From Fidelibacterota bacterium (GTDB lineage Bacteria > Fidelibacterota > UBA8477 > JABMPR01), in the NCBI GenBank assembly GCA_016845065.1, contig JAERTG010000050.1, positions 129,948 to 193,947 of the forward strand: DNA of 64,000 nt. The letters run 5' to 3'. The notes under the pieces are model-generated. The model was not told the DNA's origin. It made no database searches and worked only from the letters and a program-made list of their open reading frames with translations. Shown here in pieces: positions 6,140-22,482 of this stretch. Positions within the stretch are counted from its first letter, which is position 1; every line of letters starts with the position of its first letter. The position numbers were made by a program, and so were the translations under genes.

Positions 6140-7054
6140 ATGCAGGCTATATTTGGCCGATTTTCAGGAGGGGGGGTTAACTCGAATGGGGAAGGCTCTG
6201 ACGCTTTGCGACATTTTGTTTTATTTTCCGCAATTCTAATCTCTTGTACTTCAACGGATATACCTGTCACACCCGATGCACCAGATCCAATACAAATCAA
6301 TATTGAAAGTGCAGATAGCCTCTGGTCGCTGAGGGCAGATATGGCAAGTGCCCAGGCAGCACTTACAATTTTTCAAAAGCTTGCAGAATCAGATTCATCA
6401 TCTATTGAGCTATGGGCTAAACTTTCCAGGGCTTATTACTTTTGTGGCCAATATTTGACCACCTCTCCACAGGTTCGTGATAGCCTGCTCTTAAAGGGTT
6501 ACGAAGCCAGTCAGTCAGTTCTCAAACAAAATAGCGAATATCGAAATCTGCTGTTCTCAACCGGGGATGAAAGCATGGCGGTTCGTGGACTTGACGAAAA
6601 TTCTCTCAATGCCCTGTATTGGGGTATGGCTAATTATGGACAATGGTTGGCCACTAAAAGCAATTTGATTCGCATGGGACAACGTGAGCTTATTTGGACA
6701 ACTCTGGAGCATATAAACGATTTGGACTCCACCTTTTACTATGGAGCATATTACAGGTATAAAGGTGCCCTGTTAGGGCGTGATCCCAAAACTGAAAATG
6801 ATACAACGGGTATCCGGGAGGCTTTTGATGAGGCTATAAGGGTTTCACCTGATTATCTAGGCAATTATACGCTGATGGCTCAACACTACTGTCCTCTGGC
6901 CCAGGATAAAAATCTGTTTTATAGCCTTTTAACAAAGGTAGTAACGACAACACTGAATCCAGACCTCCCATATTATCCTGAAAATGTCTATGAGAAAGCG
7001 CTGGCTGAAAGATTAATGATCAAAGCAGAAAAGGAAAACTGGTTTAATCTATGA
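6140..7054 (+). CDS. Hypothetical lipoprotein (helical, TPR-like?). The true start may be an internal TTG near 6204.
   Basis: Long ORF. Signal/lipobox-like segment LRHFVLFSAILISCTS. No recognisable catalytic motif. Confidence 0.5.
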   Translation: MQAIFGRFSGGGVNSNGEGSDALRHFVLFSAILISCTSTDIPVTPDAPDPIQINIESADSLWSLRADMASAQAALTIFQKLAESDSSSIELWAKLSRAYYFCGQYLTTSPQVRDSLLLKGYEASQSVLKQNSEYRNLLFSTGDESMAVRGLDENSLNALYWGMANYGQWLATKSNLIRMGQRELIWTTLEHINDLDSTFYYGAYYRYKGALLGRDPKTENDTTGIREAFDEAIRVSPDYLGNYTLMAQHYCPLAQDKNLFYSLLTKVVTTTLNPDLPYYPENVYEKALAERLMIKAEKENWFNL

Positions 7055-10336: not shown

Positions 10337-12637
10337 TTATTCAGGGACCGCAATACCTTCAATACGGGCCAATCGTTTTTTGTTCATTTCAAGTAAGATC
10401 GCGAGAAGTGTCAATGTCGCAGTTGAAGTCGAGACCATGGCGAAGACCATTAATCCACCCATATGGATCATGGGGATAAACATGGAAAATAACAGTGCTC
10501 CGAAAGCCATATTGGATGCAGCATCAAGAATAACGGGGAAACCAACATCTCGCATAGTCTCTCGGCTCAATTTGCCATCAAGACCGTGAGTGTGTAGGTG
10601 ATTTCGGAACTGACTGATATAATGAACTGCAAAATCCACTCCCACCCCAATTATGATTGCTGAGAGTAGGGCTGTAACATGGTTGAGGTCCACACCAAAA
10701 ATACCCATGAGCCCAAAGTTCAGAATAACAGCTGAACTGAGTGGGACTACTGCCAGAAGACCCCACAACCAGTGTTTGAAGAAGTATCCGACAATGAGGG
10801 CGATAATGATGATGGAAGCCAGAATGCTGATGAATGAACTCTGTACGATGAGGGCTACCAGATCACGGAAGACTATGAGCAATCCACTTACGGTAATATT
10901 CAAGTCTTTGTATTCATCCTGCTGGAGAAACTCCTCGATCTCTTTGACCAGCACCACGATCTCAGCGGTGGATATTGAGCGCATCATGGAGGTGGCAAGC
11001 CCCTTTTCATAGTCGTAGTCCACAAGCGAACTGAAGTCATCAGGATCTCCAGACATGGAGTACAGGGTGAACAAGTTATTCACTTTAGCTCGCGTATCAG
11101 GAATGGTTTCAAATGCCGGATCATCATCATTGACCATGCGGTGCATCTGTTTGATCACATCGGCAATTGAAATAGACAGGGTCACTGATTCGTATTCTTC
11201 CATGAACTCCTGAATGCTTTCCATTTTATTCAGAATTTCAGGATCCTTCAGGTCTGCATTGATCAACAACTGCAAATCCATAGTGCCTGTCATCTCGCTA
11301 TCCATGAATTCAAGGCTTTGACGAATGGGATTATCGTGTTTGAACATATCTGTCATGTTTACTTCAATGTTAAGTTTGAAAAAGCCCAATATACCAATCA
11401 CGATCACCACAGCACCGCCCACGAGGACGGCCTTAGGACGCCTGATTACCTGTTCACCAAAAGCAATGACAAATCGCTCAAAGTGGCTGGGATGGGATAC
11501 AGCAGCAGAATCTGGATTCCATTTCTTCAGTACGAGTATCGAGGGTAGAAAAATAGTTGAAAGTATCCAGGCCCACAGGATGCCCATTGAGATGGACACA
11601 CCATATCCAAAAAGTGGTTCCAGAGGAGCAAAGACCAGACAGAGAAACGCTGCCACTGTAGTCAGTGCAGTAAGGAAGATAGGTAGTAGGAGGGAGTTAA
11701 TACTGGCTCCGACGGCTTCCCGAGAATCTTTATTTATGCGCATCTTCCTGAAAAACTTGGTGACAACGTGGACACCATATGAGTTGGCAATTGTTAACAG
11801 AATTATGGGCATTGTGGTATTCAAGACACCGAACATGAACTTGTCGGATCCTGTAAAATGAATCATCCATCCGTTGAAGCCCAGCATAAACACGAGGGAA
11901 AGGACTATGGTTGCCAGAACGCTAAGCACAGAGGGGACATTTCTGAAGCTGAAAAGGAGTATGAGCAACATGCCCATCAAGCCAACCCGCATCAATCCCA
12001 TGACATCATCACGTATGATGGACGGCAGTGCTCCAGTAAGATAGGCCTGGCCTCCCCAGTGTACATCGTAGTCAGCAAGGTACTTGTCAGCAACCTCCTG
12101 CATTTCAGTTACGAGTACATCATTTCCAGCTCCGATAACTGGTCGGATGATCACATTGAAATAGTCACCCTTGGATCCAACATTTCTAGTCTTGATCTTT
12201 GAATTTGAATCCAGATACTCACGCAAATTAGCAATCTCCTGCGCATCAAGATCACGATATTCCTGGAGTGAAGAAACCTCCAGAAAACCATCAATACTTT
12301 CCATTTTATCGGTGGTGGAAATACACATAATCTCATCGACATATTCGATCTGCTCCAGCGAGTAGGCCACATCCCAGAGTGTAGCCAGACTCTTTGCATT
12401 CAATACATCTTCACCACGTTTCCCAAAGCCAAGAAACATGAGATCACTGCTGCCAAACTCATCCTTGAGCTCATTCAGGGTCACCATGGTAGGAATATCC
12501 TGGGGCAGCATCTTCATAAAGTCATCTTCTATCACGAAGTGCCTGAGTCCTGAAGCCATCATCAGAGTGAGTAGAATTGTTATAATTATACTACGTTTGG
12601 GGTGATCTACGGACTGGCTGATGAACCACTGTTTCAT
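10337..12637 (-). CDS. MMPL-family RND superfamily exporter (12 TM, two 6-TM halves with periplasmic domains)
   Basis: 766 aa. Two hydrophobic blocks separated by soluble domains. Start overlaps the tetR stop (ATGA). Confidence 0.8.
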   Translation of the reverse strand: MKQWFISQSVDHPKRSIIITILLTLMMASGLRHFVIEDDFMKMLPQDIPTMVTLNELKDEFGSSDLMFLGFGKRGEDVLNAKSLATLWDVAYSLEQIEYVDEIMCISTTDKMESIDGFLEVSSLQEYRDLDAQEIANLREYLDSNSKIKTRNVGSKGDYFNVIIRPVIGAGNDVLVTEMQEVADKYLADYDVHWGGQAYLTGALPSIIRDDVMGLMRVGLMGMLLILLFSFRNVPSVLSVLATIVLSLVFMLGFNGWMIHFTGSDKFMFGVLNTTMPIILLTIANSYGVHVVTKFFRKMRINKDSREAVGASINSLLLPIFLTALTTVAAFLCLVFAPLEPLFGYGVSISMGILWAWILSTIFLPSILVLKKWNPDSAAVSHPSHFERFVIAFGEQVIRRPKAVLVGGAVVIVIGILGFFKLNIEVNMTDMFKHDNPIRQSLEFMDSEMTGTMDLQLLINADLKDPEILNKMESIQEFMEEYESVTLSISIADVIKQMHRMVNDDDPAFETIPDTRAKVNNLFTLYSMSGDPDDFSSLVDYDYEKGLATSMMRSISTAEIVVLVKEIEEFLQQDEYKDLNITVSGLLIVFRDLVALIVQSSFISILASIIIIALIVGYFFKHWLWGLLAVVPLSSAVILNFGLMGIFGVDLNHVTALLSAIIIGVGVDFAVHYISQFRNHLHTHGLDGKLSRETMRDVGFPVILDAASNMAFGALLFSMFIPMIHMGGLMVFAMVSTSTATLTLLAILLEMNKKRLARIEGIAVPE

Positions 12638-13254
12638 GAAAGCTCCTCTAGGATTTGAATCCCCTCTTCCGTCAACATACCTCTCAGGAATATCTCCCGA
12701 AAAGATTGAAATGCCTGTGTGGGATTTAAATTATTTTGAATAAAAAATTCTGGTTGAAAGGTTGAGTTTATGATGTGCATAAACATGGTTGCTGTTAAAT
12801 CGATATCTAATTCCTGCCGGATAAGGCTCTGTTTCTGACCCAACTTGAAGATCGTCAGAAAGTCATCCCTTCTGTTTAGGCGGAATTCCTCCATGCGCTT
12901 CCAAATTTGTGGGTAGCGAATTTTTATATCGCCAAGCCGTCGTATGGAAACTTTGGAAGCCGTGCTTGATAGCAATGTGAGGATTCGATTTAATTGATGA
13001 ATAGCGGTGGGCTCTTTTTCCATGGTCCTCTTGAAATGCCACACGACCTGACCAGACGCGAATTCGAACATCTTTTCGAGAAGTCGCTCTTTGGAAGGGA
13101 AAAATTTATAGATTGTCTTTTTACTCATCCCCAGGTCCTGAGCAAGGTTCTCTACTGTAAACGAGCGAACACCATCACGATGGAGAAGTTCGAAACCACG
13201 CTCAAGAATGAGGTCCTCGGGTTGATTGCTCGATGGAAACGTTTTTCGTGTCAT
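12634..13254 (-). CDS. TetR/AcrR family transcriptional regulator
   Basis: N-terminal HTH segment LILERGFELLHRDGVRSFTVENLAQDLGMSKKTIYKFF. Likely start is MTRKTF at 13254; the ORF track runs to 13290. Confidence 0.8.
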   Translation of the reverse strand: MTRKTFPSSNQPEDLILERGFELLHRDGVRSFTVENLAQDLGMSKKTIYKFFPSKERLLEKMFEFASGQVVWHFKRTMEKEPTAIHQLNRILTLLSSTASKVSIRRLGDIKIRYPQIWKRMEEFRLNRRDDFLTIFKLGQKQSLIRQELDIDLTATMFMHIINSTFQPEFFIQNNLNPTQAFQSFREIFLRGMLTEEGIQILEELS

Positions 13255-13307
13255 ACGTTTCCAATCTATACAGAAATACAATCCATGCAAGACAGATTTT
13301 GATCAAA

Positions 13308-15581
13308 TTACCTGTTAAAAATGAATTTTGGTCGTGTAAGAATGAGCACCAGAGGTAACAGCGTCAAGGCAGCAATTAAGCACATGAAAATGGAGACCGA
13401 GATGAGCCATCCAAAGAAATAGATGGGAATGAAGGTGGAAAGCATGCAAACAGCAAAACCCATCATCACAGAGAATCCATTAATGATGATGCCCTGGCCT
13501 GTGGTGCTTAATGTTTTTACGATGGCCTCCTCATCAGTGAGACCCTTACGGATTTCAGTTCTAAATCGGAACAAAAAGTGAATAGTATAATCAATACCTA
13601 TACCTATCATGATTGAACTAAGCATTGAAGTCGCCGTGTTCAAATATATACCCAGGTACCCCATCAGGCCAAAAACACCTGCAATAGCAAATGCCAGAGG
13701 CATAGCGCTAATTAATGCAGCTGATAAAGATCTGAAAACAAGACCCGTTACCAGTGCAGCAAAGATTACTGACAATACAAGACTGCGAATTTGACCCTTT
13801 ACCATCATAGGCATCAAATTCCCAAGAAGTACAGCATACCCCTCACTTTTGGGCTTGTTATCTACGTGGATATTTTCATTGAGGAATTGATTTAACTCCT
13901 CCTGAAGATCCACCATATAATACACATCCATGGTATTAAGTCTTACCACGATTTGGGCGGTCCGATAATCATAGTCCACATAAGAATCCAGATAGCCATC
14001 GCTGGATTCCCATGAGTATAACAACAAGTATTGGGAAACCAGCTGACGTGATTCAGGTATGGTGTAATAAGCTGGATCCCCACCGTTCATCGACTGGTTC
14101 ATGAGCTTTAGGAAATCTGTTATGGCCAACGTATACCCAACTCCCTCGCGATCCTCAAGAAACTGTTGTATTTGATCAACCTGGTATAATACATCAGGAG
14201 ATTTTATGTCTCCCTCCACTACAACAGACATGGTCGTACTGCCCCCAAAGTGATCTTCGATGATATTGTTGATCACCCTTACATTGGACTCAGGGCTATA
14301 GTAATTGAGGGGGTTGCTATCTAATTCAACTTTGGGAATGCCGATTGCTGCAATGATCATAATCAAAGCAAATGCAGCAAATATGATATTGCGGTGGTGG
14401 AAAACGACGCTTCCAATCCTTACCAAAATCCGTGAAAGCAACCTGTTGGCAGTATTTTTATTCTGTCTTTCAGAACTAGGTTTTTTAGTCAGGACCAATA
14501 CTGCCGGGATGAATGTTATTGATATTCCGAAGGCCAGAACTACACCAAAGGCTGTCAAAATACCCACTTCTCTTGAGGCGGGCAAAATGTGAGAGAGCAA
14601 AGATAAAAATCCAATCACCGTGGTAAGACCAGCCAAAAAGAGGGGTCTCATCATGTGCTCGATGACATTGGTGACAACTTCCTTATTATCTGCATCATCT
14701 GGCAAATCTGCACAATCTTCAAAATAGCGCGTAATGATGTGAATACCATATGCACTGGCGACAGCGATCAGCATGATGGGCATGATACTGGTAATGACAG
14801 ACAACATAAGCCCAAACCATGCCATGAGACCCAAAGTCCCCAGAATCGACAATAAAACAACCAGGAGGGGCAGAGCCACCCCACGACGGGAGCGGAAACT
14901 AAAATAAAGTAGAAGTGCAATCAGCACCATACCGGAAGGAATAAATGTGCGTGTGTCATGAGCAATATCTTCTGATATTTGGGATCTGATGACTGGCATG
15001 CCACCCAACCTTAAATCATGGCTCGCTTCTTGATAGGGCTGAAGCACACGTTTCAGGGTATCAACTACTGCAACCTCATCAACATCTGGATCAGAGTAAA
15101 TGATGATAGCAGTATATTTGCCATCGGCGGACACAAGTAGCCGTCCTAATATTGGATCTGCCAGTGCAGTGCCAGACAATGAATCACTCTCTGCTTGATT
15201 CCGAGGCAATTCCTGAATGAAGCTTTCCACTGTCATTGATTCATCATCACTTGTGATGGATTCATAATTGGTCAAACTGATAATATGATCAATTTCAGTC
15301 AGGGCTTCCAGATCATAGGTCAGATTGTCAATCATCTCAAGACTCTCACTAGCGAAAACATCCTCAGCATGATAGCTGATCAGGATGACATCCAAGCCAC
15401 CAAATTCTTCTTCAAGTTCTTCCATTCGAATGACATCCGGGTCATCAGCTGGGATTAGCGCTTGTAGATCGGGATTAATATGAATCCTATATATGGGGAG
15501 GGCTAAAAGTGTAATTACCAGGATATTTATGAAGATAATGACCTTCGGATGCTGCGTGATTATCCTGGTGAAATTTTTCAT
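13308..15581 (-). CDS. MMPL-family RND superfamily exporter (second copy)
   Basis: ~757 aa with the same two-lobed TM architecture. ATG at 15581; the track's TTG is at 15590. Confidence 0.8.
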   Translation of the reverse strand: MKNFTRIITQHPKVIIFINILVITLLALPIYRIHINPDLQALIPADDPDVIRMEELEEEFGGLDVILISYHAEDVFASESLEMIDNLTYDLEALTEIDHIISLTNYESITSDDESMTVESFIQELPRNQAESDSLSGTALADPILGRLLVSADGKYTAIIIYSDPDVDEVAVVDTLKRVLQPYQEASHDLRLGGMPVIRSQISEDIAHDTRTFIPSGMVLIALLLYFSFRSRRGVALPLLVVLLSILGTLGLMAWFGLMLSVITSIMPIMLIAVASAYGIHIITRYFEDCADLPDDADNKEVVTNVIEHMMRPLFLAGLTTVIGFLSLLSHILPASREVGILTAFGVVLAFGISITFIPAVLVLTKKPSSERQNKNTANRLLSRILVRIGSVVFHHRNIIFAAFALIMIIAAIGIPKVELDSNPLNYYSPESNVRVINNIIEDHFGGSTTMSVVVEGDIKSPDVLYQVDQIQQFLEDREGVGYTLAITDFLKLMNQSMNGGDPAYYTIPESRQLVSQYLLLYSWESSDGYLDSYVDYDYRTAQIVVRLNTMDVYYMVDLQEELNQFLNENIHVDNKPKSEGYAVLLGNLMPMMVKGQIRSLVLSVIFAALVTGLVFRSLSAALISAMPLAFAIAGVFGLMGYLGIYLNTATSMLSSIMIGIGIDYTIHFLFRFRTEIRKGLTDEEAIVKTLSTTGQGIIINGFSVMMGFAVCMLSTFIPIYFFGWLISVSIFMCLIAALTLLPLVLILTRPKFIFNR

Positions 15582-15729
15582 GGCCAGCAATGTATTGTGA
15601 CGCCCAGTCTGATGAAAGAAAAAGGAATATTTCAGCTTTTTTGAAGAAAATATTTTATGGGTTTAAAAAATGCTATGCACGCCTTATTTGAAGGATATAT
15701 TAAGCGTAACTAAGAAGTGAGACACGCTA

Positions 15730-16563
15730 ATGAATGAAAAGCTACTTCCTGCCCTCAAGTCATTCGGATTTACATCCAACGAAGCAAAAACATATCTCAG
15801 TCTTTTGAAGAATAATCCAGCCACTGGATATGAGATTAGTGGTAAGTCGGGTATTCCCAGATCGGCGATATATGAGATACTCAAACGATTGGAAAGTACA
15901 GGGATGGTGAGTTGTGTGGATTCAAACCCCACGCGGTACATCCCGCTGCCTCCAGATCATCTCTTTGACGTTTTGGAGAACAACTTCACTACCAATCTGG
16001 ATACGCTAAAAGATTCATTAAAAAATGTGAATACTGACCTTGAAGTTGGTGATCTGTGGAATATTCGTGGATATGACAGTATGCTCGATCGCGCAAGACA
16101 CATGATCAAAAATGCTGAAAAATCTGTCTATTTATCTTTATGGCTCACAGAATACAATAAGCTCCACACTGATCTTATCGCCGCAGAGAAACGTGGTGTT
16201 AATATTGTCATTTTTTCCTTCTGTGAAATTCCCGTAGATGTAGGGACCGTATTCGCCTACAACCTGGATAGTCGACGTCTTGAAGATGTGTGGAGCAGCA
16301 AAATTTTATTGGTAGTTGACCATGATTCTGCCCTGTTGGGTGGCGTGGAAATGCTACCAACTAATAAGGTCGCTTGGACCAGGAACTCAGCCATTGTTGC
16401 CATCGCGCTGAATTATATCATTCTGGATCTTACCCTATTCGGACAGCGTTACGAACTTGATATGAACCCAGTAATTACTGACATGCTCCACGGTGAGATC
16501 CACAACTTAGATGACCTGTTAAGTGAAGATCACGAAGCAATTATCCACCTTAAAACGAATTGA
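15730..16563 (+). CDS. TrmB-family sugar-responsive transcriptional regulator
   Basis: N-terminal winged HTH LKSFGFTSNEAKTYLSLLKNNPATGYEISGKSGIPRSAIYEILKRLESTGMV, followed by a C-terminal TrmB-like domain. Confidence 0.8.
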   Translation: MNEKLLPALKSFGFTSNEAKTYLSLLKNNPATGYEISGKSGIPRSAIYEILKRLESTGMVSCVDSNPTRYIPLPPDHLFDVLENNFTTNLDTLKDSLKNVNTDLEVGDLWNIRGYDSMLDRARHMIKNAEKSVYLSLWLTEYNKLHTDLIAAEKRGVNIVIFSFCEIPVDVGTVFAYNLDSRRLEDVWSSKILLVVDHDSALLGGVEMLPTNKVAWTRNSAIVAIALNYIILDLTLFGQRYELDMNPVITDMLHGEIHNLDDLLSEDHEAIIHLKTN

Positions 16564-16619
16564 TCAAATGAAATTATACATAACCTTTAACAATCGGTCC
16601 CCTTTGAACAGGGACCGAA

Positions 16620-17651
16620 ATGGAGGCACGTTCTATGAGTAAGATTAGAATCGGGCTGATGGGATTTGGTGAGATCGGTAGAGATGTCTATCGCTTGAGC
16701 TTAAACCAGCCTGAAATGGAAGTTGTAGCAATTAGTGATATCGGTCGCTCCGATATTCTTCACTACTTGCTAAAAAACGATGGGAGAGATCCAGTTGATG
16801 CACAATTAGAGGGTAATTACCTTGTTGTTGGGGATCAGAAGGCTCGTGTCATCCATGGTGTCGCTCCGAAAGATGTTCCATGGGATGCTTTCGATGTTGA
16901 TATAGTAATTGACTCGACCCACAAATACCGCACACGTGAAAGCATGCAAGCTCATCTGGATTCAGGTGCCAAACGTGTAATTCTTGGATCACTGCCACAG
17001 GATGACATTGATCGGGTGATTGTAATGGGTGTCAACGATGAAACAATTAAGGTGAGCGATAAACTTGTATCTGCCGCATCAGCCACGACAAATGCCCTGG
17101 CTTTAATGCTGGATACTCTGGATAAGGCCTTTGGTATTGAATCTGCCATGATGACCACCATCCACGCATACACCAGCGATCAACCCCTGCGCGATACTGC
17201 CGCATCAGATTTTAGACGTAGCCGTTCCGCCGCAGAAAATATTATTCCTAATGTCAACATCAGCCCCTACTGGATGGAACATATCTTACCTCGCTTCAAA
17301 GGTAAGATTGAAGGTTCAGCCCTTAATGTTCCTGTCCCAATGGGATCACTTCTTGATCTGACATGTGTCTTGACCAAAGGTGAGACCACTGCTGAAGAAG
17401 TAAATGCTGCCATGCGAAAGGCTGCTGAATCATTGGCTGGATACATAGAAGTCACTGAAGATCCCATCGTATCCAGTGATGTCATTGGAAATGCTCACTC
17501 CCTGCTGTTTGACACGAAGGGAACCATGAAATCCAGCAAAAGAATGGTGAAGACTTTGAGTTGGTATGATAACAGTCTTGGCCAGGCCGGACGTCTAGTA
17601 GATCTAGCTCTTGCTTATGGTAAGCTTGGGGTAGAAGGAGGTGCTGCATGA
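16620..17651 (+). CDS. GAPDH-fold paralog lacking the catalytic cysteine (probable NAD-binding pseudoenzyme)
   Basis: Rossmann motif GFGEIGR. The canonical SNASCTTNCLAP reads SAASATTNALAL, so Cys149 and Cys153 are both Ala. The S-loop TTGAAKAV and the anion-site Arg are also replaced. Overlaps gap by ATGA. Confidence 0.8.
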   Translation: MEARSMSKIRIGLMGFGEIGRDVYRLSLNQPEMEVVAISDIGRSDILHYLLKNDGRDPVDAQLEGNYLVVGDQKARVIHGVAPKDVPWDAFDVDIVIDSTHKYRTRESMQAHLDSGAKRVILGSLPQDDIDRVIVMGVNDETIKVSDKLVSAASATTNALALMLDTLDKAFGIESAMMTTIHAYTSDQPLRDTAASDFRRSRSAAENIIPNVNISPYWMEHILPRFKGKIEGSALNVPVPMGSLLDLTCVLTKGETTAEEVNAAMRKAAESLAGYIEVTEDPIVSSDVIGNAHSLLFDTKGTMKSSKRMVKTLSWYDNSLGQAGRLVDLALAYGKLGVEGGAA

Positions 17652-18649
17652 GAGTAGCAATCAATGGATTCGGTCGTATCGGTCGTTCCGTATTTCGCAT
17701 TTTAGATAAACGTGATGACATAAATGTTGTCGCAATAAACGACTTGTTTGAGCGGGAAGCCCTGGCTTATCTGCTTAAATATGATACGGTTATGGGTGGG
17801 TTTGGCGATGCATCAGTCCACTTGAAAGAGGATGTTCTCCACACCGCCAATGATACTGTAAAGATGATCAGCGAACGTAATCCTGCAGACCTACCCTGGA
17901 AAGAATTGGATATCGATGTTGTAATCGAGGCTACTGGTGTCTTCAGAACCAAAGAATCCCTAACACCACATTTAACTGCCGGTGCAAAACGTGTCATCCT
18001 GACTGTCCCTTCAAAGGATGAAGTGGATTACACAGTAGTATTGGGTGTAAATGAGGATGGACTGAAACCAGAGCATAGAATTGTATCAAATGCCAGTTGT
18101 ACAACAAACTGTTTGGCCCCGATGGCTAAAGTTCTTAATGATGCTTTTGGTATCGTTGAGGGTGTGATGACTACAACACATGCCTACACCAATGATCAGC
18201 GTCTTGCTGATGTTCCTCACTCAGACTGGCGTCGTAGCCGTGCAGCTGCTGAAAACATTATTCCAACAACCACTGGTGCTGCCCGTGCAGTAGGAAAAGT
18301 ACTTCCTGAACTGAAGGGTAAGTTGGATGGTATTGCAGCTCGAGTGCCTGTAGCTGATGGTTCAGTTGTTGATCTCATTGTTGAATTGAACCGAAACGTG
18401 ACTGTTGAGGATATCAATGCAGCAGTTCGTGAAGCTACTAAGACTGATCGTCTGAAGGATGTTCTTGAATATAACGAAAACCACCTGGTCTCTTCTGATA
18501 TTATCGGAAATCCGTACTCCTCTATATATGATGCATCATATACACGGGTGGTGGGAAATCGAATTGTCAAAACACTGAACTGGTACGACAATGAGTGGGG
18601 TTACTCAAACCGCGTTGTTGACCTGATTAACTTGTTTAAGGGTATGTAG
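17648..18649 (+). CDS. gap: Glyceraldehyde-3-phosphate dehydrogenase, type I (canonical)
   Basis: INGFGRIGR, SNASCTTNCLAP, and WYDNEWGYS are all present. Confidence 0.95.
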   Translation: MRVAINGFGRIGRSVFRILDKRDDINVVAINDLFEREALAYLLKYDTVMGGFGDASVHLKEDVLHTANDTVKMISERNPADLPWKELDIDVVIEATGVFRTKESLTPHLTAGAKRVILTVPSKDEVDYTVVLGVNEDGLKPEHRIVSNASCTTNCLAPMAKVLNDAFGIVEGVMTTTHAYTNDQRLADVPHSDWRRSRAAAENIIPTTTGAARAVGKVLPELKGKLDGIAARVPVADGSVVDLIVELNRNVTVEDINAAVREATKTDRLKDVLEYNENHLVSSDIIGNPYSSIYDASYTRVVGNRIVKTLNWYDNEWGYSNRVVDLINLFKGM

Positions 18650-18672
18650 TTAATATCCATTTATGATAATTA

Positions 18673-18706
18673 GAGCCGGTCGCTTCTCCGACCGGCTCTC
18701 TTGTCT
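18673..18706 (+). terminator. Rho-independent terminator after gap
   Basis: GC-rich hairpin gagccggtcg-cttctc-cgaccggctc followed by a T-rich tail. Confidence 0.6.
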
Positions 18707-18752: not shown

Positions 18753-20822
18753 ATGAAACAAGTCCAATTTATTTTTGGAATTCATAACCACCAACCTGTG
18801 GGAAATTTTGATGATGTATTCCATGATGCCTGTGACCGTTCCTACCTGCCCTTTTTACAAGTGCTGGAGAAGTTCCCGGATATAAGCATGGCCTTCCACT
18901 TTAGTGGATCTCTAATCGAATGGCTTGAAGTACATCGTCCAGATGTTTTGACTATCTTTAAAAAACTGGTCGATCGAGGTAACATCGAAGTGCTTGGAGG
19001 AGGTTTTTACGAACCTATCCTGGCTATGATTCCCGAGGCAGATCAGGTAGGTCAAATCAAAAAAATGAACGACTGGTCTCTGCAGCGTATGAATTATGAG
19101 ATTAAAGGGAACTGGCTTACTGAACGCGTTTGGGAACCGCACCTGGCGAAAAGTTTAAGCAAGGCCGAAATTGAGTATATGGTAGTAGATGACTACCACT
19201 TCCTGACAACGGGCGCAGACCCAGAAAACTTGAATGGGTATTTTTATACAGAGCAAGAGGGGAGGGTTCTCAGCGTTTTCCCTATTAGCCAAAAAATGCG
19301 TTATGCCATGCCTTTTGAAGACCCGCAAGTTGCCATTGATATTTTAAGAGGTTATGCCACGGAAGATGGTGACAGCCTTGTTGTCATGGCTGATGATGGG
19401 GAGAAATTTGGTATTTGGCCTGGAACCTGGGAAACCGTTTACAACCAAAAATGGCTGGAAAGATTTTTTACACTGGTAAGTAAAAATTCTGATTGGCTAT
19501 CAACCACCACATTTAAACAATATCATTCAAACCACAGCCCTCGTGATCTGGTTTACATTCCAACATCCTCTTATTTCGAGATGTCCCAATGGACCCTACC
19601 TACTGAATTGGGTCGCCAGATGGATCAATTTGTTCATGACCTCGAAAACCAAGGCCGTGGCGATGAAACTCGACCCTTTATCAAGGGTGGTATGTGGCGC
19701 AATTTTTTTACTAAATACCCCGAGTCAAACTGGATGCAGAAACGTGTACAGTTCTTATCTCTTAATTTGGATCAACTGGAGAGCAAAGGGGGTACCCCTA
19801 CTCAACTGAGAGATGATCTTTATCGAGCTCAGTGCAACTGTGCATACTGGCATGGTGTGTTTGGTGGCCTATATCTTCCACACCTTCGTCACGCCATATA
19901 TGAACATCTACTCAAAGCCGAAGAAAAATTCCTGTTATCAGGCGGAAGTCTGCCCGGTTTGGCTGATCTTGATAGCGATGGGGTCGATGAATACCGTCTG
20001 CGTTCTGACAATGTCCAACTTTTTATCTCCGCTGACAAAGGGCATATCAAGGAAATCGATTGGCTGCCAGCCCATTTTAATGTGACCAACTATCTTCAGC
20101 GTTATTCTGAGCATTATCATGAAAAACTGGCTTTAGCCAACAATGACCAAAACACCAACGGTTCGATACATGATATCGTATTAACCAAGGAAGAAGGTCT
20201 TGAGAAAAAATTATTTGTAGATTATTATAGACGTCACGGGCTTATCGACCACGTTTTTGACCACAATCAAAGCCAGGAGATGCATTATCAGGGAAAGCTG
20301 GATGACAAATTGTCCCTCCAATCCAGTCAGGTCCAACAGGATGAAGCTGGAGTGCACATTTTAAGTGGCTATCAAGCTGAAGAGTCCCAACTTCAAATAG
20401 AAAAAAAAGTAGAGCTCCATCATAACGATTTAATAGTTAAAATTAATATTTCAAATGCTGGTGAGACCACCCTCAACCAGCTCTATGGAGTTGAAATGAA
20501 TTTCGGACTCCTTGGTGGAGATAGCCCAGATCGCTATTACCAGGTGAACAAAGTAAAAGTTGGCCCCCTGAATAGTCATGGTCAGCACGGGGATGTCGAA
20601 AGTGTCTCACTCGTGAATGAGTGGGATAATTTCAGAATAAATCTGGATTTTGGAACAGAGTGTCAGTTATGGCGCTCTCCAATTGAAACTATCTCAATGT
20701 CAGAAGCTGGATTTGAGCGTGTCTACCAGGCATCAGCTCTTTTGCCACACTGGAAATTGGATTTGAAACCAGGAGCGTCTCTTGAACTGGAGCTTCTCCT
20801 GAGCATAAATAATTTTAAATAA
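18753..20822 (+). CDS. GH57-family glycoside hydrolase (4-alpha-glucanotransferase / alpha-amylase type)
   Basis: N-terminal GH57 signature FIFGIHNHQPVGNF...HFSGSLIEWLE. Length 689 aa. Confidence 0.85.
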   Translation: MKQVQFIFGIHNHQPVGNFDDVFHDACDRSYLPFLQVLEKFPDISMAFHFSGSLIEWLEVHRPDVLTIFKKLVDRGNIEVLGGGFYEPILAMIPEADQVGQIKKMNDWSLQRMNYEIKGNWLTERVWEPHLAKSLSKAEIEYMVVDDYHFLTTGADPENLNGYFYTEQEGRVLSVFPISQKMRYAMPFEDPQVAIDILRGYATEDGDSLVVMADDGEKFGIWPGTWETVYNQKWLERFFTLVSKNSDWLSTTTFKQYHSNHSPRDLVYIPTSSYFEMSQWTLPTELGRQMDQFVHDLENQGRGDETRPFIKGGMWRNFFTKYPESNWMQKRVQFLSLNLDQLESKGGTPTQLRDDLYRAQCNCAYWHGVFGGLYLPHLRHAIYEHLLKAEEKFLLSGGSLPGLADLDSDGVDEYRLRSDNVQLFISADKGHIKEIDWLPAHFNVTNYLQRYSEHYHEKLALANNDQNTNGSIHDIVLTKEEGLEKKLFVDYYRRHGLIDHVFDHNQSQEMHYQGKLDDKLSLQSSQVQQDEAGVHILSGYQAEESQLQIEKKVELHHNDLIVKINISNAGETTLNQLYGVEMNFGLLGGDSPDRYYQVNKVKVGPLNSHGQHGDVESVSLVNEWDNFRINLDFGTECQLWRSPIETISMSEAGFERVYQASALLPHWKLDLKPGASLELELLLSINNFK

Positions 20823-20835
20823 ACACGAGGAATAA

Positions 20836-22482
20836 ATGTCAAATACTCAAGCCACTGTAGCTTATTTCAGTGCAGAAATCGGGATTTCTCCAAGTCTGCA
20901 CACGTATAGTGGGGGACTTGGAATTTTAGCTGGCGACCACATTAAGGCAGCCGCAGATTTAGATGTAAATATGGTTGCAGTAACACTGATGTATAAAGAG
21001 GGCTATTTCAAGCAGAGAATGGATGAAGAAGGTAATCAAACGGAGATTTATCCTCGATTCGAGCCAGATCCGCTACTTGAAAAACTTGATGGGACCATTA
21101 CGTTGCCACTTAGGGGTCGGGAAGTCCATGTCCAGGTGTGGAAATATACGTTTGAAGGAATAAACGGGACGCCAATTGACATCCTTTTACTGGATACGGA
21201 TGTTGCGCAAAATGAAGCAGATGATAGGAAAATTACACTAAGACTATACTCTGGAGGAAAAGATCATCGAATTCTTCAAGAGGCTGTTTTGGGTTTTGCC
21301 GGTATTCGAGCCCTGCGCAATCTTGGGTACAAGGATTTTTCAACTTACCATATGAATGAAGGTCATTGTTCCTTCCTCACTCTGGAACTACTTAAAGAGT
21401 TCAAGGGGAATGAAGAAGAAGTGAGGAAGCGTTGTCACTTTACCACGCATACGCCTGTTCCTGCAGGACATGACCATTTTGCTGCAGATCGTGTTAAACG
21501 TTTGATTGGCGACCTCTTACCACCAAATCTGAAGCTTCCATCCATGGTGCTAAATAGCCGAGTCCACATGACTGAATTGGGTCTTTATTTTAGCCGCAGT
21601 GCAAATGGCGTGTCCGAACTCCATGGTGAGGTTGCACGTGACCAGTTTCCAAAATTTGAGATTGGCCATGTGACCAATGGTGTTTTTCATCGATTCTGGG
21701 TAGGTAAGATCTTCCGAGAAGTATTTGACAGAAATCTTCCTGGATGGCGTGAAGATCCGACCCGTCTACTGGATATAGATACGGTTCCGGATGAGGAAAT
21801 CTTATTCGCCCGTCGGGGCCAAAAGAAATTTTTGCTGGATTATGCCAATTCTCAAACCCAGAGAGCACTTGCAAACAAAACCTTAACCGTTGGGTTTGCC
21901 AGAAGAGCCGCAGAATACAAACGTGCCCGCTTAATCTTTCATGACAAAGAAAGGTTGATTCGTCTTGCGAAAGGGAACAAGATTCAATTTGTCTTTGCCG
22001 GCAAAGCACATCCCCGCGATGATCATGGAAAAGAGATTCTAAAGGAGATCGTTCTTCAAGCAAAAGAACTACTTGGTGATGTAAAAATTGTATTCCTTGA
22101 AAATTACAATATGTGGTTAGGCAATCTGATCACAGCAGGTGTAGATGTTTGGCTGAATACACCTCTCCGACCTAACGAAGCTTCTGGTACTTCCGGAATG
22201 AAGGCCACTCTCAATGGTGTACCCAATTTATCCATTCTTGATGGTTGGTGGGCGGAAGCCTGCGAGGATGGTGTGAATGGGTGGGCTGTCGGTGATGCTG
22301 ATCATGCAAATGATGCCGCTGATGCTGATCATCTCTATAGATTATTAGAAGAGCAGGTTATTCCAACTTATTATAATGATCAGGATAATTGGCTGAAGAT
22401 CATTCGTGAATCCATTAAAACCGGTGTTCAATTTACGGGTACACGGATGGTACAGGATTATCTGAAAGACTATTATAGATAA
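20836..22482 (+). CDS. glgP: Alpha-glucan (glycogen/maltodextrin) phosphorylase, short GT35-like form
   Basis: The N-terminal GGLGILAGDH and the PLP-lysine motif NEASGTSGMK are both present. Confidence 0.85.
   Translation: MSNTQATVAYFSAEIGISPSLHTYSGGLGILAGDHIKAAADLDVNMVAVTLMYKEGYFKQRMDEEGNQTEIYPRFEPDPLLEKLDGTITLPLRGREVHVQVWKYTFEGINGTPIDILLLDTDVAQNEADDRKITLRLYSGGKDHRILQEAVLGFAGIRALRNLGYKDFSTYHMNEGHCSFLTLELLKEFKGNEEEVRKRCHFTTHTPVPAGHDHFAADRVKRLIGDLLPPNLKLPSMVLNSRVHMTELGLYFSRSANGVSELHGEVARDQFPKFEIGHVTNGVFHRFWVGKIFREVFDRNLPGWREDPTRLLDIDTVPDEEILFARRGQKKFLLDYANSQTQRALANKTLTVGFARRAAEYKRARLIFHDKERLIRLAKGNKIQFVFAGKAHPRDDHGKEILKEIVLQAKELLGDVKIVFLENYNMWLGNLITAGVDVWLNTPLRPNEASGTSGMKATLNGVPNLSILDGWWAEACEDGVNGWAVGDADHANDAADADHLYRLLEEQVIPTYYNDQDNWLKIIRESIKTGVQFTGTRMVQDYLKDYYR

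Follow-up and report, generated by a model that had tools for sequence, protein, structure and literature searches.

Glyceraldehyde-3-phosphate dehydrogenase (GAPDH) forms an obligate tetramer with a core built from the S-loops, each of which is ordered by the neighboring subunits. It is among the most studied enzymes and, to our knowledge, the bacterial enzyme is taken to be a homotetramer. In chloroplasts, the duplicated GAPDH paralogs GapA and GapB form an A2B2 tetramer, and GapB regulates via a C-terminal, CP12-like extension that contains Cys residues. Pseudoenzymes act as partner subunits in the trypanosomatid AdoMetDC and DHS prozymes, in plant PPi-PFK alpha/beta, and in yeast NAD-IDH1/IDH2. 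Trypanosoma brucei HXK2 is inactive unless it is co-expressed with HXK1 (cited in PMC4106842), and PMC8376405 is on a catalytically impaired TrpA of Chlamydia that regulates TrpB. In the literature that we searched, no pseudoenzyme partner subunit for GAPDH is described. Here we report a pair of genes in a stretch of 64,000 nucleotides (nt) from a Fidelibacterota bacterium (GenBank assembly GCA_016845065.1, contig JAERTG010000050.1, positions 129,948 to 193,947 of the forward strand); this whole stretch is called the window. Gene A encodes a GAPDH paralog without the catalytic Cys, and gene B, immediately downstream, encodes a canonical GAPDH. The A-B pair is an ancient, widespread, and unannotated two-gene GAPDH module, far broader than this one locus. 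For any locus we call the upstream paralog U and the downstream canonical gene D; A and B are the U and D of the window.

Both genes are on the forward strand. Gene A (16635 to 17651) encodes a type I GAPDH-fold protein of 338 amino acids (aa), and gene B (17648 to 18649) encodes a canonical NAD-dependent phosphorylating GAPDH of 333 aa. The Pfam domains Gp_dh_N and Gp_dh_C are found in A at 3e-20 and 3e-45 and in B at 5e-36 and 2e-65, respectively, and the two proteins are 43% identical over 327 aa. The stop codon of A and the start codon of B share the sequence ATGA at 17648 to 17651 (the junction reads GCT GCA TGA / ATG AGA GTA), an arrangement for translational coupling. The Shine-Dalgarno (SD) sequence of B, AAGGAGGT at 17635 to 17642, lies inside the final codons of A (..E-G-G-A-A-stop). 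An initial annotation, made by a model from the sequence alone, had described tandem GAPDH genes with this overlap, and that description is correct. Its start for A, at 16620, is not: homologs are 338 aa long, the ATG at 16620 lacks conservation among 11 aligned Marinimicrobia loci, and the SD sequence GGAGG (16622 to 16626), invariant in these same loci, is 8 nt before the ATG at 16635, the true start.

Residue positions are given in the numbering of the Bacillus stearothermophilus enzyme unless marked E. coli. In E. coli numbering, the substrate-phosphate (Ps) site consists of Thr180, Thr182, and Arg232; the new inorganic-phosphate (Pi) site of Ser149, Thr151, Thr209, and His177; the mobile phosphate loop of residues 208 to 215; and the NAD contacts of Arg11, Ile12, Asp34, Arg78, Ser120, and Asn315, and the mutants C150S and H177A are described as essentially inactive (PMC8615399). 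In B, every catalytic, Ps, Pi, and NAD residue is in place. The segment SNASCTTNCLAP of B corresponds to SAASATTNALAL in A, in which both Cys149 and Cys153 are replaced by Ala; direct reading of the sequence gives GCC at the catalytic Cys149 position (17082 to 17084) and a second GCC at the Cys153 position (17094 to 17096). GIAARVPV of B is GSALNVPV in A, with Asn (AAT, 17325 to 17327) at the Ps-site Arg231 position, which is a hallmark of the paralog family. TTGAARAV of B is NVNISPYW in A, where Thr208-Gly209 has become Asn-Ile and Ala213 has become Trp; A also carries Arg10Glu and Asn6Met. Ser148, Thr150, His176, Thr179, Arg195, and the S-loop are kept. A is unable to form the thioacyl intermediate, and both anion sites are lost, Arg231 and Thr208-Gly209 being changed while Ser148, Thr150, and Thr179 are not. 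The losses of both Cys residues and of the phosphate-site Arg had been recognized in the initial annotation. An S-loop change had been claimed as well; the substitution exists, but TTGAAKAV is the Pi loop (207 to 214), and the S-loop (178 to 201) is the best-conserved part of A. Similarly, the NAD motif was said to be kept: the glycine motif GFGEIGR is indeed intact in A, but Arg10 is Glu, and Gly12 and Asn313 vary across the clade. In the window's protein, GxGxxG, Asp32, and Asn313 are present, Arg77 is Val, and Ser119 is Gly. A fits the signature of its family with Asn231, Met6, Pro211, and Ser314.

Profile scores separate A from its named relatives, and A reaches none of the curated NCBIfam cutoffs. 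Against TIGR01534 (GAPDH-I, EC 1.2.1.12; cutoff, 367.2 bits), B scores 441.6 and A only 297.3; this score, the lack of Cys149, and the altered anion sites place A outside the GAPDH-I equivalog. An Epd identity is ruled out by the lack of Cys149 and by scores of 233 against a cutoff of 530.55 for TIGR01532 and 238.7 against 539 for NF010058. A GapN identity is ruled out because A has no Aldedh domain (PF00171), only Gp_dh_N and Gp_dh_C. The earlier statement that A is neither an Epd nor a GapN variant thus agrees with the NCBIfam cutoffs and the absence of an aldehyde dehydrogenase (ALDH) domain. Over its full length A is collinear with GAPDH, and it has no extra domain or signal peptide. Its C-terminus, ..AYGKLGVEGGAA, is without Cys, so A lacks the kind of Cys-pair tail, docking near the GAPDH active site, that marks regulation of the chloroplast GapB type, and the CP12-like role suggested at first has no basis in the sequence. 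The AlphaFold 2 (AF2) model of A has a mean predicted local distance difference test (pLDDT) score of 87, is confident throughout except in the S-loop, and superposes on solved GAPDHs with template modeling (TM) scores of 0.85 to 0.90.

A is not peculiar to one genome. The 120 closest database proteins, from Marinimicrobia, Bacteroidota, and metagenome-assembled genomes (MAGs) of the FCB group, are 56 to 96% identical to A, and all 120 lack Cys149 and Cys153 and have Asn at 231. A search for Cys-less orthologs in related genomes, which had been proposed as a check, found relatives in at least 451 species (pattern scan, one genome per species). The best 80 of these 451 species are all represented by MAGs, from Neomarinimicrobiota/Fidelibacterota, Bacteroidales, Lentimicrobiaceae, and Latescibacterota, with a handful of labels that are probably mis-binned. 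Among the Marinimicrobia orthologs, A and B have ratios of nonsynonymous to synonymous substitution rates (dN/dS) of 0.043 and 0.037, respectively. Purifying selection on A is strong, and A, as the two ratios indicate, is constrained as tightly as the real enzyme.

A belongs to one ancient, widespread paralog family, the signature of which is Asn231, a hydrophobic residue at position 6, Pro211, and a residue other than Glu at 314. In an exhaustive profile-free search, 21 of the 133 best full-length GAPDH-like cluster representatives had no Cys149, and most of these carry Asn231. Asn231 is present in all 176 members of the FCB clade and in 153 of 154 upstream paralogs. We pooled the genome loci with 80 further loci from a metagenome scan seeded with distant members, which gave 134 complete pairs. 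Classified by residues 149, 176, and 231, the upstream proteins of these pairs are Ala-His-Asn (61 pairs), Ser-His-Asn (52), Asn-Lys-Asn (10), Asn-His-Asn (5), Cys-His-Asn (3), and Pro-His-Asn, Ile-His-Asn, and Cys-His-Cys (1 each); across the family, position 149 is Ala, Ser, Asn, Pro, Ile, or Gly. The upstream proteins, including those that retain Cys, form one clade in 91 of 100 neighbor-joining (NJ) bootstraps. The downstream genes were grouped as a GAPDH subclade of their own in one NJ tree, but bootstrap support was 22 of 100 and we dropped that claim. Against TIGR01534, the Cys-retaining type scores 383 bits, above the cutoff, versus 321 for the Ser type, 284 for the Asn type, and 297 for the Ala type. 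Because they pass the GAPDH-I cutoff, the Cys-retaining members are annotated as true GAPDHs. In the Asn149/Lys176/Asn231 subclade (a subset of L135 to L157, from soil and sediment metagenomes), His176 has become Lys and Thr179 has become Ser; four of the partner genes in this subclade have Cys153Ser. The literature that we searched, which is incomplete, contained no published name or description of the Asn231-type paralogs or of a bacterial A-B pair, and nothing relevant on Cys-less, inactive, or heteromeric bacterial GAPDH except for a trypanosome GAPDH-like protein that is discussed below. In a 2025 review of the GapDH superfamily, our term searches brought up no relevant passage on a bacterial pair.

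Within the family, the catalytic and NAD-binding residues differ by clade. All 120 sequences of the basal clade keep Cys149, His176, Arg10, Gly12, Asp32, Asn313, and Tyr317. This clade already has Asn (or Cys) at 231 and Trp, His, Phe, or Tyr at 209, and it also carries Ser210, Pro211, Gly314, Met6, and Ala153; one member is labeled by NCBI as Candidatus Polarisedimenticolaceae (Acidobacteriota). In the window's clade (n = 176), Cys149 is lost in every member (replaced by Ala in 116, Ser in 57, Pro in 2, and Gly in 1), Glu has replaced Arg10 in 166, only 94 keep Gly12 and only 110 keep Asn313, and Arg77 and Ser119 are variable. His176, Ser148, Thr150, Thr179, and Arg195 are invariant in the same clade. 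The decaying positions of the upstream family are the Pi loop and Asn313/Glu314/Tyr317, to which the window's clade adds Arg10 and Gly12. Sequence entropy in the upstream family is 1.66 overall, 1.16 in the S-loop, and 2.28 in the 207-to-215 loop, the most variable segment; the VPV..GS..D strand and the PIVS.D loop are conserved. By their residues, the clades form a graded natural series in which Cys and the NAD site are kept, then Cys is lost, then the NAD site is eroded, with the window's clade furthest along. If A and B assemble, such a series could reveal how pseudoenzyme subunits evolve. The initial annotation had called A a pseudoenzyme, a term that suits the window's clade but may not extend to the whole family, because the basal branch keeps Cys149 and an intact NAD site.

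The pair itself is a conserved unit. At all 76 genome loci with downstream DNA, a canonical gap with the SNASCTTN motif lies directly downstream of the variant gene on the same strand. The same tandem arrangement is found in all 134 complete pairs, across phyla, and the downstream gene has Cys149, His176, and Arg231 in all 134; in most of these pairs the spacing is -4 or -1. Given 300 nt or more of downstream sequence, every upstream paralog has its partner. Stop and start codons overlap at all 73 parsed genome loci (ATGA, rarely TAATG), and at nearly all of these junctions AAGGAGGT lies within the final codons of U. The C-terminal Gly-Gly of A is conserved because it encodes this SD sequence. 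Bacteroidales generally make little use of SD-led initiation, and even in this order AAGGAGGT sits 6 to 7 nt before the downstream gap (junctions of L022 to L080; e.g., L023 at about 6990 to 7017). As read from gene order, A would always be made together with a canonical GAPDH, usually from overlapping genes, and the co-expression with gap that had been proposed from one overlap fits all of these loci. Pairwise distances among the upstream proteins correlate with those among their downstream partners (r = 0.93); of the two, the upstream proteins are the faster evolving, by a factor of about 1.6.

The genes that flank the pair differ among phyla, and so it is the pair that is the conserved unit. 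The order TrmB-A-B-GH57-GlgP is found only in the Marinimicrobia clade (TrmB synteny in L001 to L018 and L050). Bacteroidales loci have a divergent lepA on one side of the pair and a surface-protein/relA region on the other, Lentimicrobiaceae loci have yet other neighbors, and the Cys-retaining (Acidobacteriota-type) locus differs too. The TrmB gene upstream and the GH57 and glgP genes downstream were correctly identified in the initial annotation, but they are specific to Marinimicrobia and stand outside the conserved unit; we therefore rejected the glycogen/TrmB context as part of the system. Two oddities among the collected loci concern the data sets. In L050 (6182 to 7344), the downstream gap is in two overlapping frames (residues 1 to 284 and 268 to 333), probably because of an assembly frameshift, not a true truncation. 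The labels of L008, L017, L018, and L050 ("Lentisphaeria"), L024 ("Binatia"), L030 ("Clostridia"), and L020 ("Gemmatimonadaceae") disagree with the content of these bins and look unreliable; L008, for example, encodes a protein 92% identical to a Marinimicrobia protein and has the same synteny from the RND transporter through GlgP.

We favor, with moderate confidence, the reading that A is a noncatalytic subunit that co-assembles with B into a heterotetramer. A and B would be made in step from one bicistronic, translationally coupled mRNA, and A would join B in a mixed tetramer, plausibly A2B2. Only the B subunits would oxidize glyceraldehyde-3-phosphate (G3P); A would contribute interface and shape and might offer a pocket (invariant Asn231, Pro211, and Trp213) in which the former active site is remodeled to bind an effector. 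A mixed tetramer with B is the most likely state of A because the S-loop is preserved while the active site decays. Further support comes from the purifying selection on A, the obligate pairing with gap, the overlapping junctions, the constancy of the pair among differing neighbors, the monophyly of the upstream family, and the correlated distances of the partners. Hetero-oligomer formation was one of the roles named in the initial annotation, and the core reading of that annotation is essentially supported by these comparisons. Because the residue at position 149 varies (Ala, Ser, Asn, Pro, Ile, or Gly), that position does not act as a conserved nucleophile. The low-confidence S-loop in the AF2 model would fit, if weakly, an element that is ordered by neighboring subunits. 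A functionally neutral, entrenched heteromer and a regulatory heteromer may both be accommodated as subcases.

Several observations weigh against this heterotetramer. There is no natural A-B fusion (a "Rosetta stone") among the long matches P0121, P0167, P0129, and P0128, each of which is either an unrelated polyprotein of several GAPDH domains, all of them with Cys, or a fragmentary chimera. The correlated divergence of the partners is expected for any adjacent, co-inherited genes. In the window's clade there is a deletion in the Tyr46/Ser48 segment, which we take to contribute to an inter-subunit contact. Because bootstrap support for a downstream clade is so low, we make no claim that B is specially adapted to its partner. 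The invariant His176, Ser148, Thr150, Thr179, Arg195, and Asn231 form a constrained pocket, which could mean ligand binding or catalysis, and the Cys149, His176, and NAD contacts of the basal clade suggest that the ancestral paralog may have been an enzyme. Together, the invariant Asn231, Pro211, His176, Thr179, and Arg195 and the basal Cys149 argue against a purely inert scaffold.

Among the rejected fusion candidates, P0121 (2,089 aa) has a signal-like N-terminus followed by domains in the order GAPDH, GAPDH, phosphoglycerate kinase (PGK), GAPDH, GAPDH. Its GAPDH domains are of two alternating types, SNASCTTNCAAP and SAASCTTNA[YF]AP, with Cys in both, and it is possibly a fused hetero-GAPDH/PGK assembly. 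P0167 (1,455 aa) has two GAPDH domains.

A bolder reading is that the Asn231 paralogs are not inert, that their rebuilt pocket (invariant Asn231, Pro211, His176, Thr179, and Arg195, with Trp213 in the window's clade) binds a metabolite or performs Cys-independent chemistry, and that the GAPDH step of these uncultured phyla is carried out by a dedicated two-subunit machine; we hold this to be improbable. If true, such a machine would differ in its properties from every homotetrameric GAPDH, for example by allosteric regulation through a triose or bisphosphate effector, an altered balance of phosphorolysis and hydrolysis, or channeling.

Two rivals to the heterotetramer, each of which we judge to have an outside chance, place A in an oligomer of its own. 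In the first, A is a stand-alone, homo-oligomeric enzyme that uses the GAPDH scaffold for chemistry independent of Cys, and its operon link to gap reflects a shared pathway; examples would be hydride transfer from a hydrated aldehyde or alcohol assisted by His176, or hydrolysis of or transfer on 1,3-bisphosphoglycerate. An engineered C149A GAPDH, the work of Corbier et al., 1992, reportedly kept a slow nonphosphorylating oxidation of the gem-diol form. The constraint on the pocket residues would suit an enzyme, as would GxGxxG, Asp32, and Asn313 in the window's protein, and the basal clade, with its full Cys/His/NAD set and both anion sites rebuilt, suggests that a changed specificity may be ancestral. 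Those arguments are offset by the free variation at position 149, by the change of His176 to Lys in one subclade, by the high variability of the 207-to-215 loop, and by the decay of NAD contacts in the window's clade (Arg10, Gly12, Asn313, Arg77, and Ser119). In addition, where stop and start codons overlap this strictly across phyla, the genes more typically encode subunits of a complex than consecutive enzymes of a pathway.

In the second rival, which is unlikely to the same degree, A is a nonenzymatic regulator or moonlighting protein outside the GAPDH tetramer that acts transiently on B or on another target, for example by sensing a metabolite, by inhibiting in the manner of CP12, or by binding nucleic acid or a surface. 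A loss of catalytic residues combined with purifying selection is what such a protein would show, its remodeled pocket is conserved (Asn231, Pro211, and Trp213), and for dead GAPDH homologs in nonglycolytic roles the GAPDH-like protein of the trypanosome flagellum is a precedent (PMC4106842). A, however, is collinear with GAPDH and carries neither an additional domain nor a signal peptide, nor a tail with a Cys pair like that of CP12, and universal 1:1 coupling to gap in any genomic context better suits a stoichiometric partner. Finally, that A is a decaying pseudogene, or that its missing Cys is a sequencing or assembly error (the refuting possibility named at the outset), has nothing but the loss of catalytic residues in its favor and is refuted by the intact 338-aa frame, the low dN/dS, the same substitutions in all 120 closest relatives, the orthologs in hundreds of species, and the two GCC codons, each of which is two base changes from TGY, so that error is not credible.

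The remaining features of the window are as follows. An 11-bp perfect G+C-rich hairpin at 18672 to 18699, on the forward strand 23 nt past the stop of B, has a ΔG of -25 kcal/mol (z = -6.7 versus shuffled sequences) and no strong T-run; it is probably the terminator that closes the A-B bicistron. A pattern scan for sigma-70 promoters and terminators gave results at or below the expectation from shuffling, and it missed this hairpin because of the absent T-run. A scan of the whole window against Rfam gave no match, and there is no second, solitary gap within the 64 kb. A short stem, CGGTCCC ... GGGACCG, at 16597 to 16617, between the trmB stop and the SD sequence of A, likewise has no Rfam match; related Marinimicrobia loci keep only the TCCC/GGGA core, and a role as trmB terminator or as a 5' untranslated region (5'-UTR) element is possible. 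The TrmB-family sugar regulator is at 15730 to 16563 (Pfam TrmB and Regulator_TrmB), the GH57 alpha-glucan enzyme at 18753 to 20822 (Pfam), and the alpha-glucan phosphorylase at 20836 to 22482 (Pfam), all on the forward strand. This last gene, labeled glgP, encodes 548 aa that match only the central third of Pfam Phosphorylase (321 to 581 of 713; 105 bits), and it is a short, divergent type of alpha-glucan phosphorylase, not the classical GlgP. Upstream of trmB, the reverse strand at 12634 to 15590 encodes a TetR-family regulator and an RND/MMPL-type transporter, and every close Marinimicrobia locus shows the same synteny for them; beyond these genes lies another transporter copy, 25% identical.

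The pair places a catalytically disabled GAPDH-fold protein beside the real enzyme in several large, mostly uncultured lineages: Marinimicrobia/SAR406, environmental Bacteroidales, and Latescibacterota-type and Acidobacteriota-type bacteria. Annotation pipelines label the upstream genes "glyceraldehyde-3-phosphate dehydrogenase," "aldehyde dehydrogenase," or "hypothetical," and because of this naming, metabolic reconstructions arrive at two GAPDHs although probably only one is present. If A and B assemble, the complex would give a universal glycolytic enzyme a new quaternary form and would be a bacterial case of an enzyme and its dead paralog working as one complex.

The closest known systems each share part of this arrangement. 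In both sequence and fold, some of the best PDB matches to A are the engineered C149A and C149S GAPDHs (PDB 1NPT, 1NQ5, 7C5G, and 7C5I). They have the same nucleophile changes as A and its family and still fold, tetramerize, and bind NAD, G3P, and phosphate (PMC8615399). Unlike A, which has lost or rebuilt these features, the mutants retain Arg231 and the Pi loop as well as every NAD contact. The erythrose-4-phosphate dehydrogenase Epd/GapB of gamma-proteobacteria and the nonphosphorylating GapN are, like A, variants of the GAPDH step with altered phosphate handling, but Epd has Cys149, His176, and Arg231, and GapN belongs to the ALDH superfamily. Epd also changes the 208-to-210 loop. The trypanosome flagellar protein TbGAPDHL is predicted to be inactive and possibly keeps part of the cofactor site; it is eukaryotic, cytoskeleton associated, weakly conserved, unlinked to an active GAPDH, and read as a relic (PMC4106842). 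A, in contrast, is strongly conserved and always coupled to gap, and a common origin of the two is unlikely.

Chloroplast GapA/GapB resembles the pair in having two GAPDH paralogs, which form one heterotetramer there; for A and B a heterotetramer is proposed. Both chloroplast subunits are catalytic, whereas A has no Cys149, Arg231, Pi loop, or Cys tail, and the A-B genes are a translationally coupled bacterial bicistron. In the pseudoenzyme partner systems, a dead or impaired paralog or subunit is kept by selection for oligomerizing with the active enzyme, which it modulates or enables, and its degenerate site is often reused for effectors. A appears to be prozyme-like in the same sense: it is a paralog of the active enzyme, its catalytic residues are gone, it is held by purifying selection, and it would act in the complex with B that we propose.

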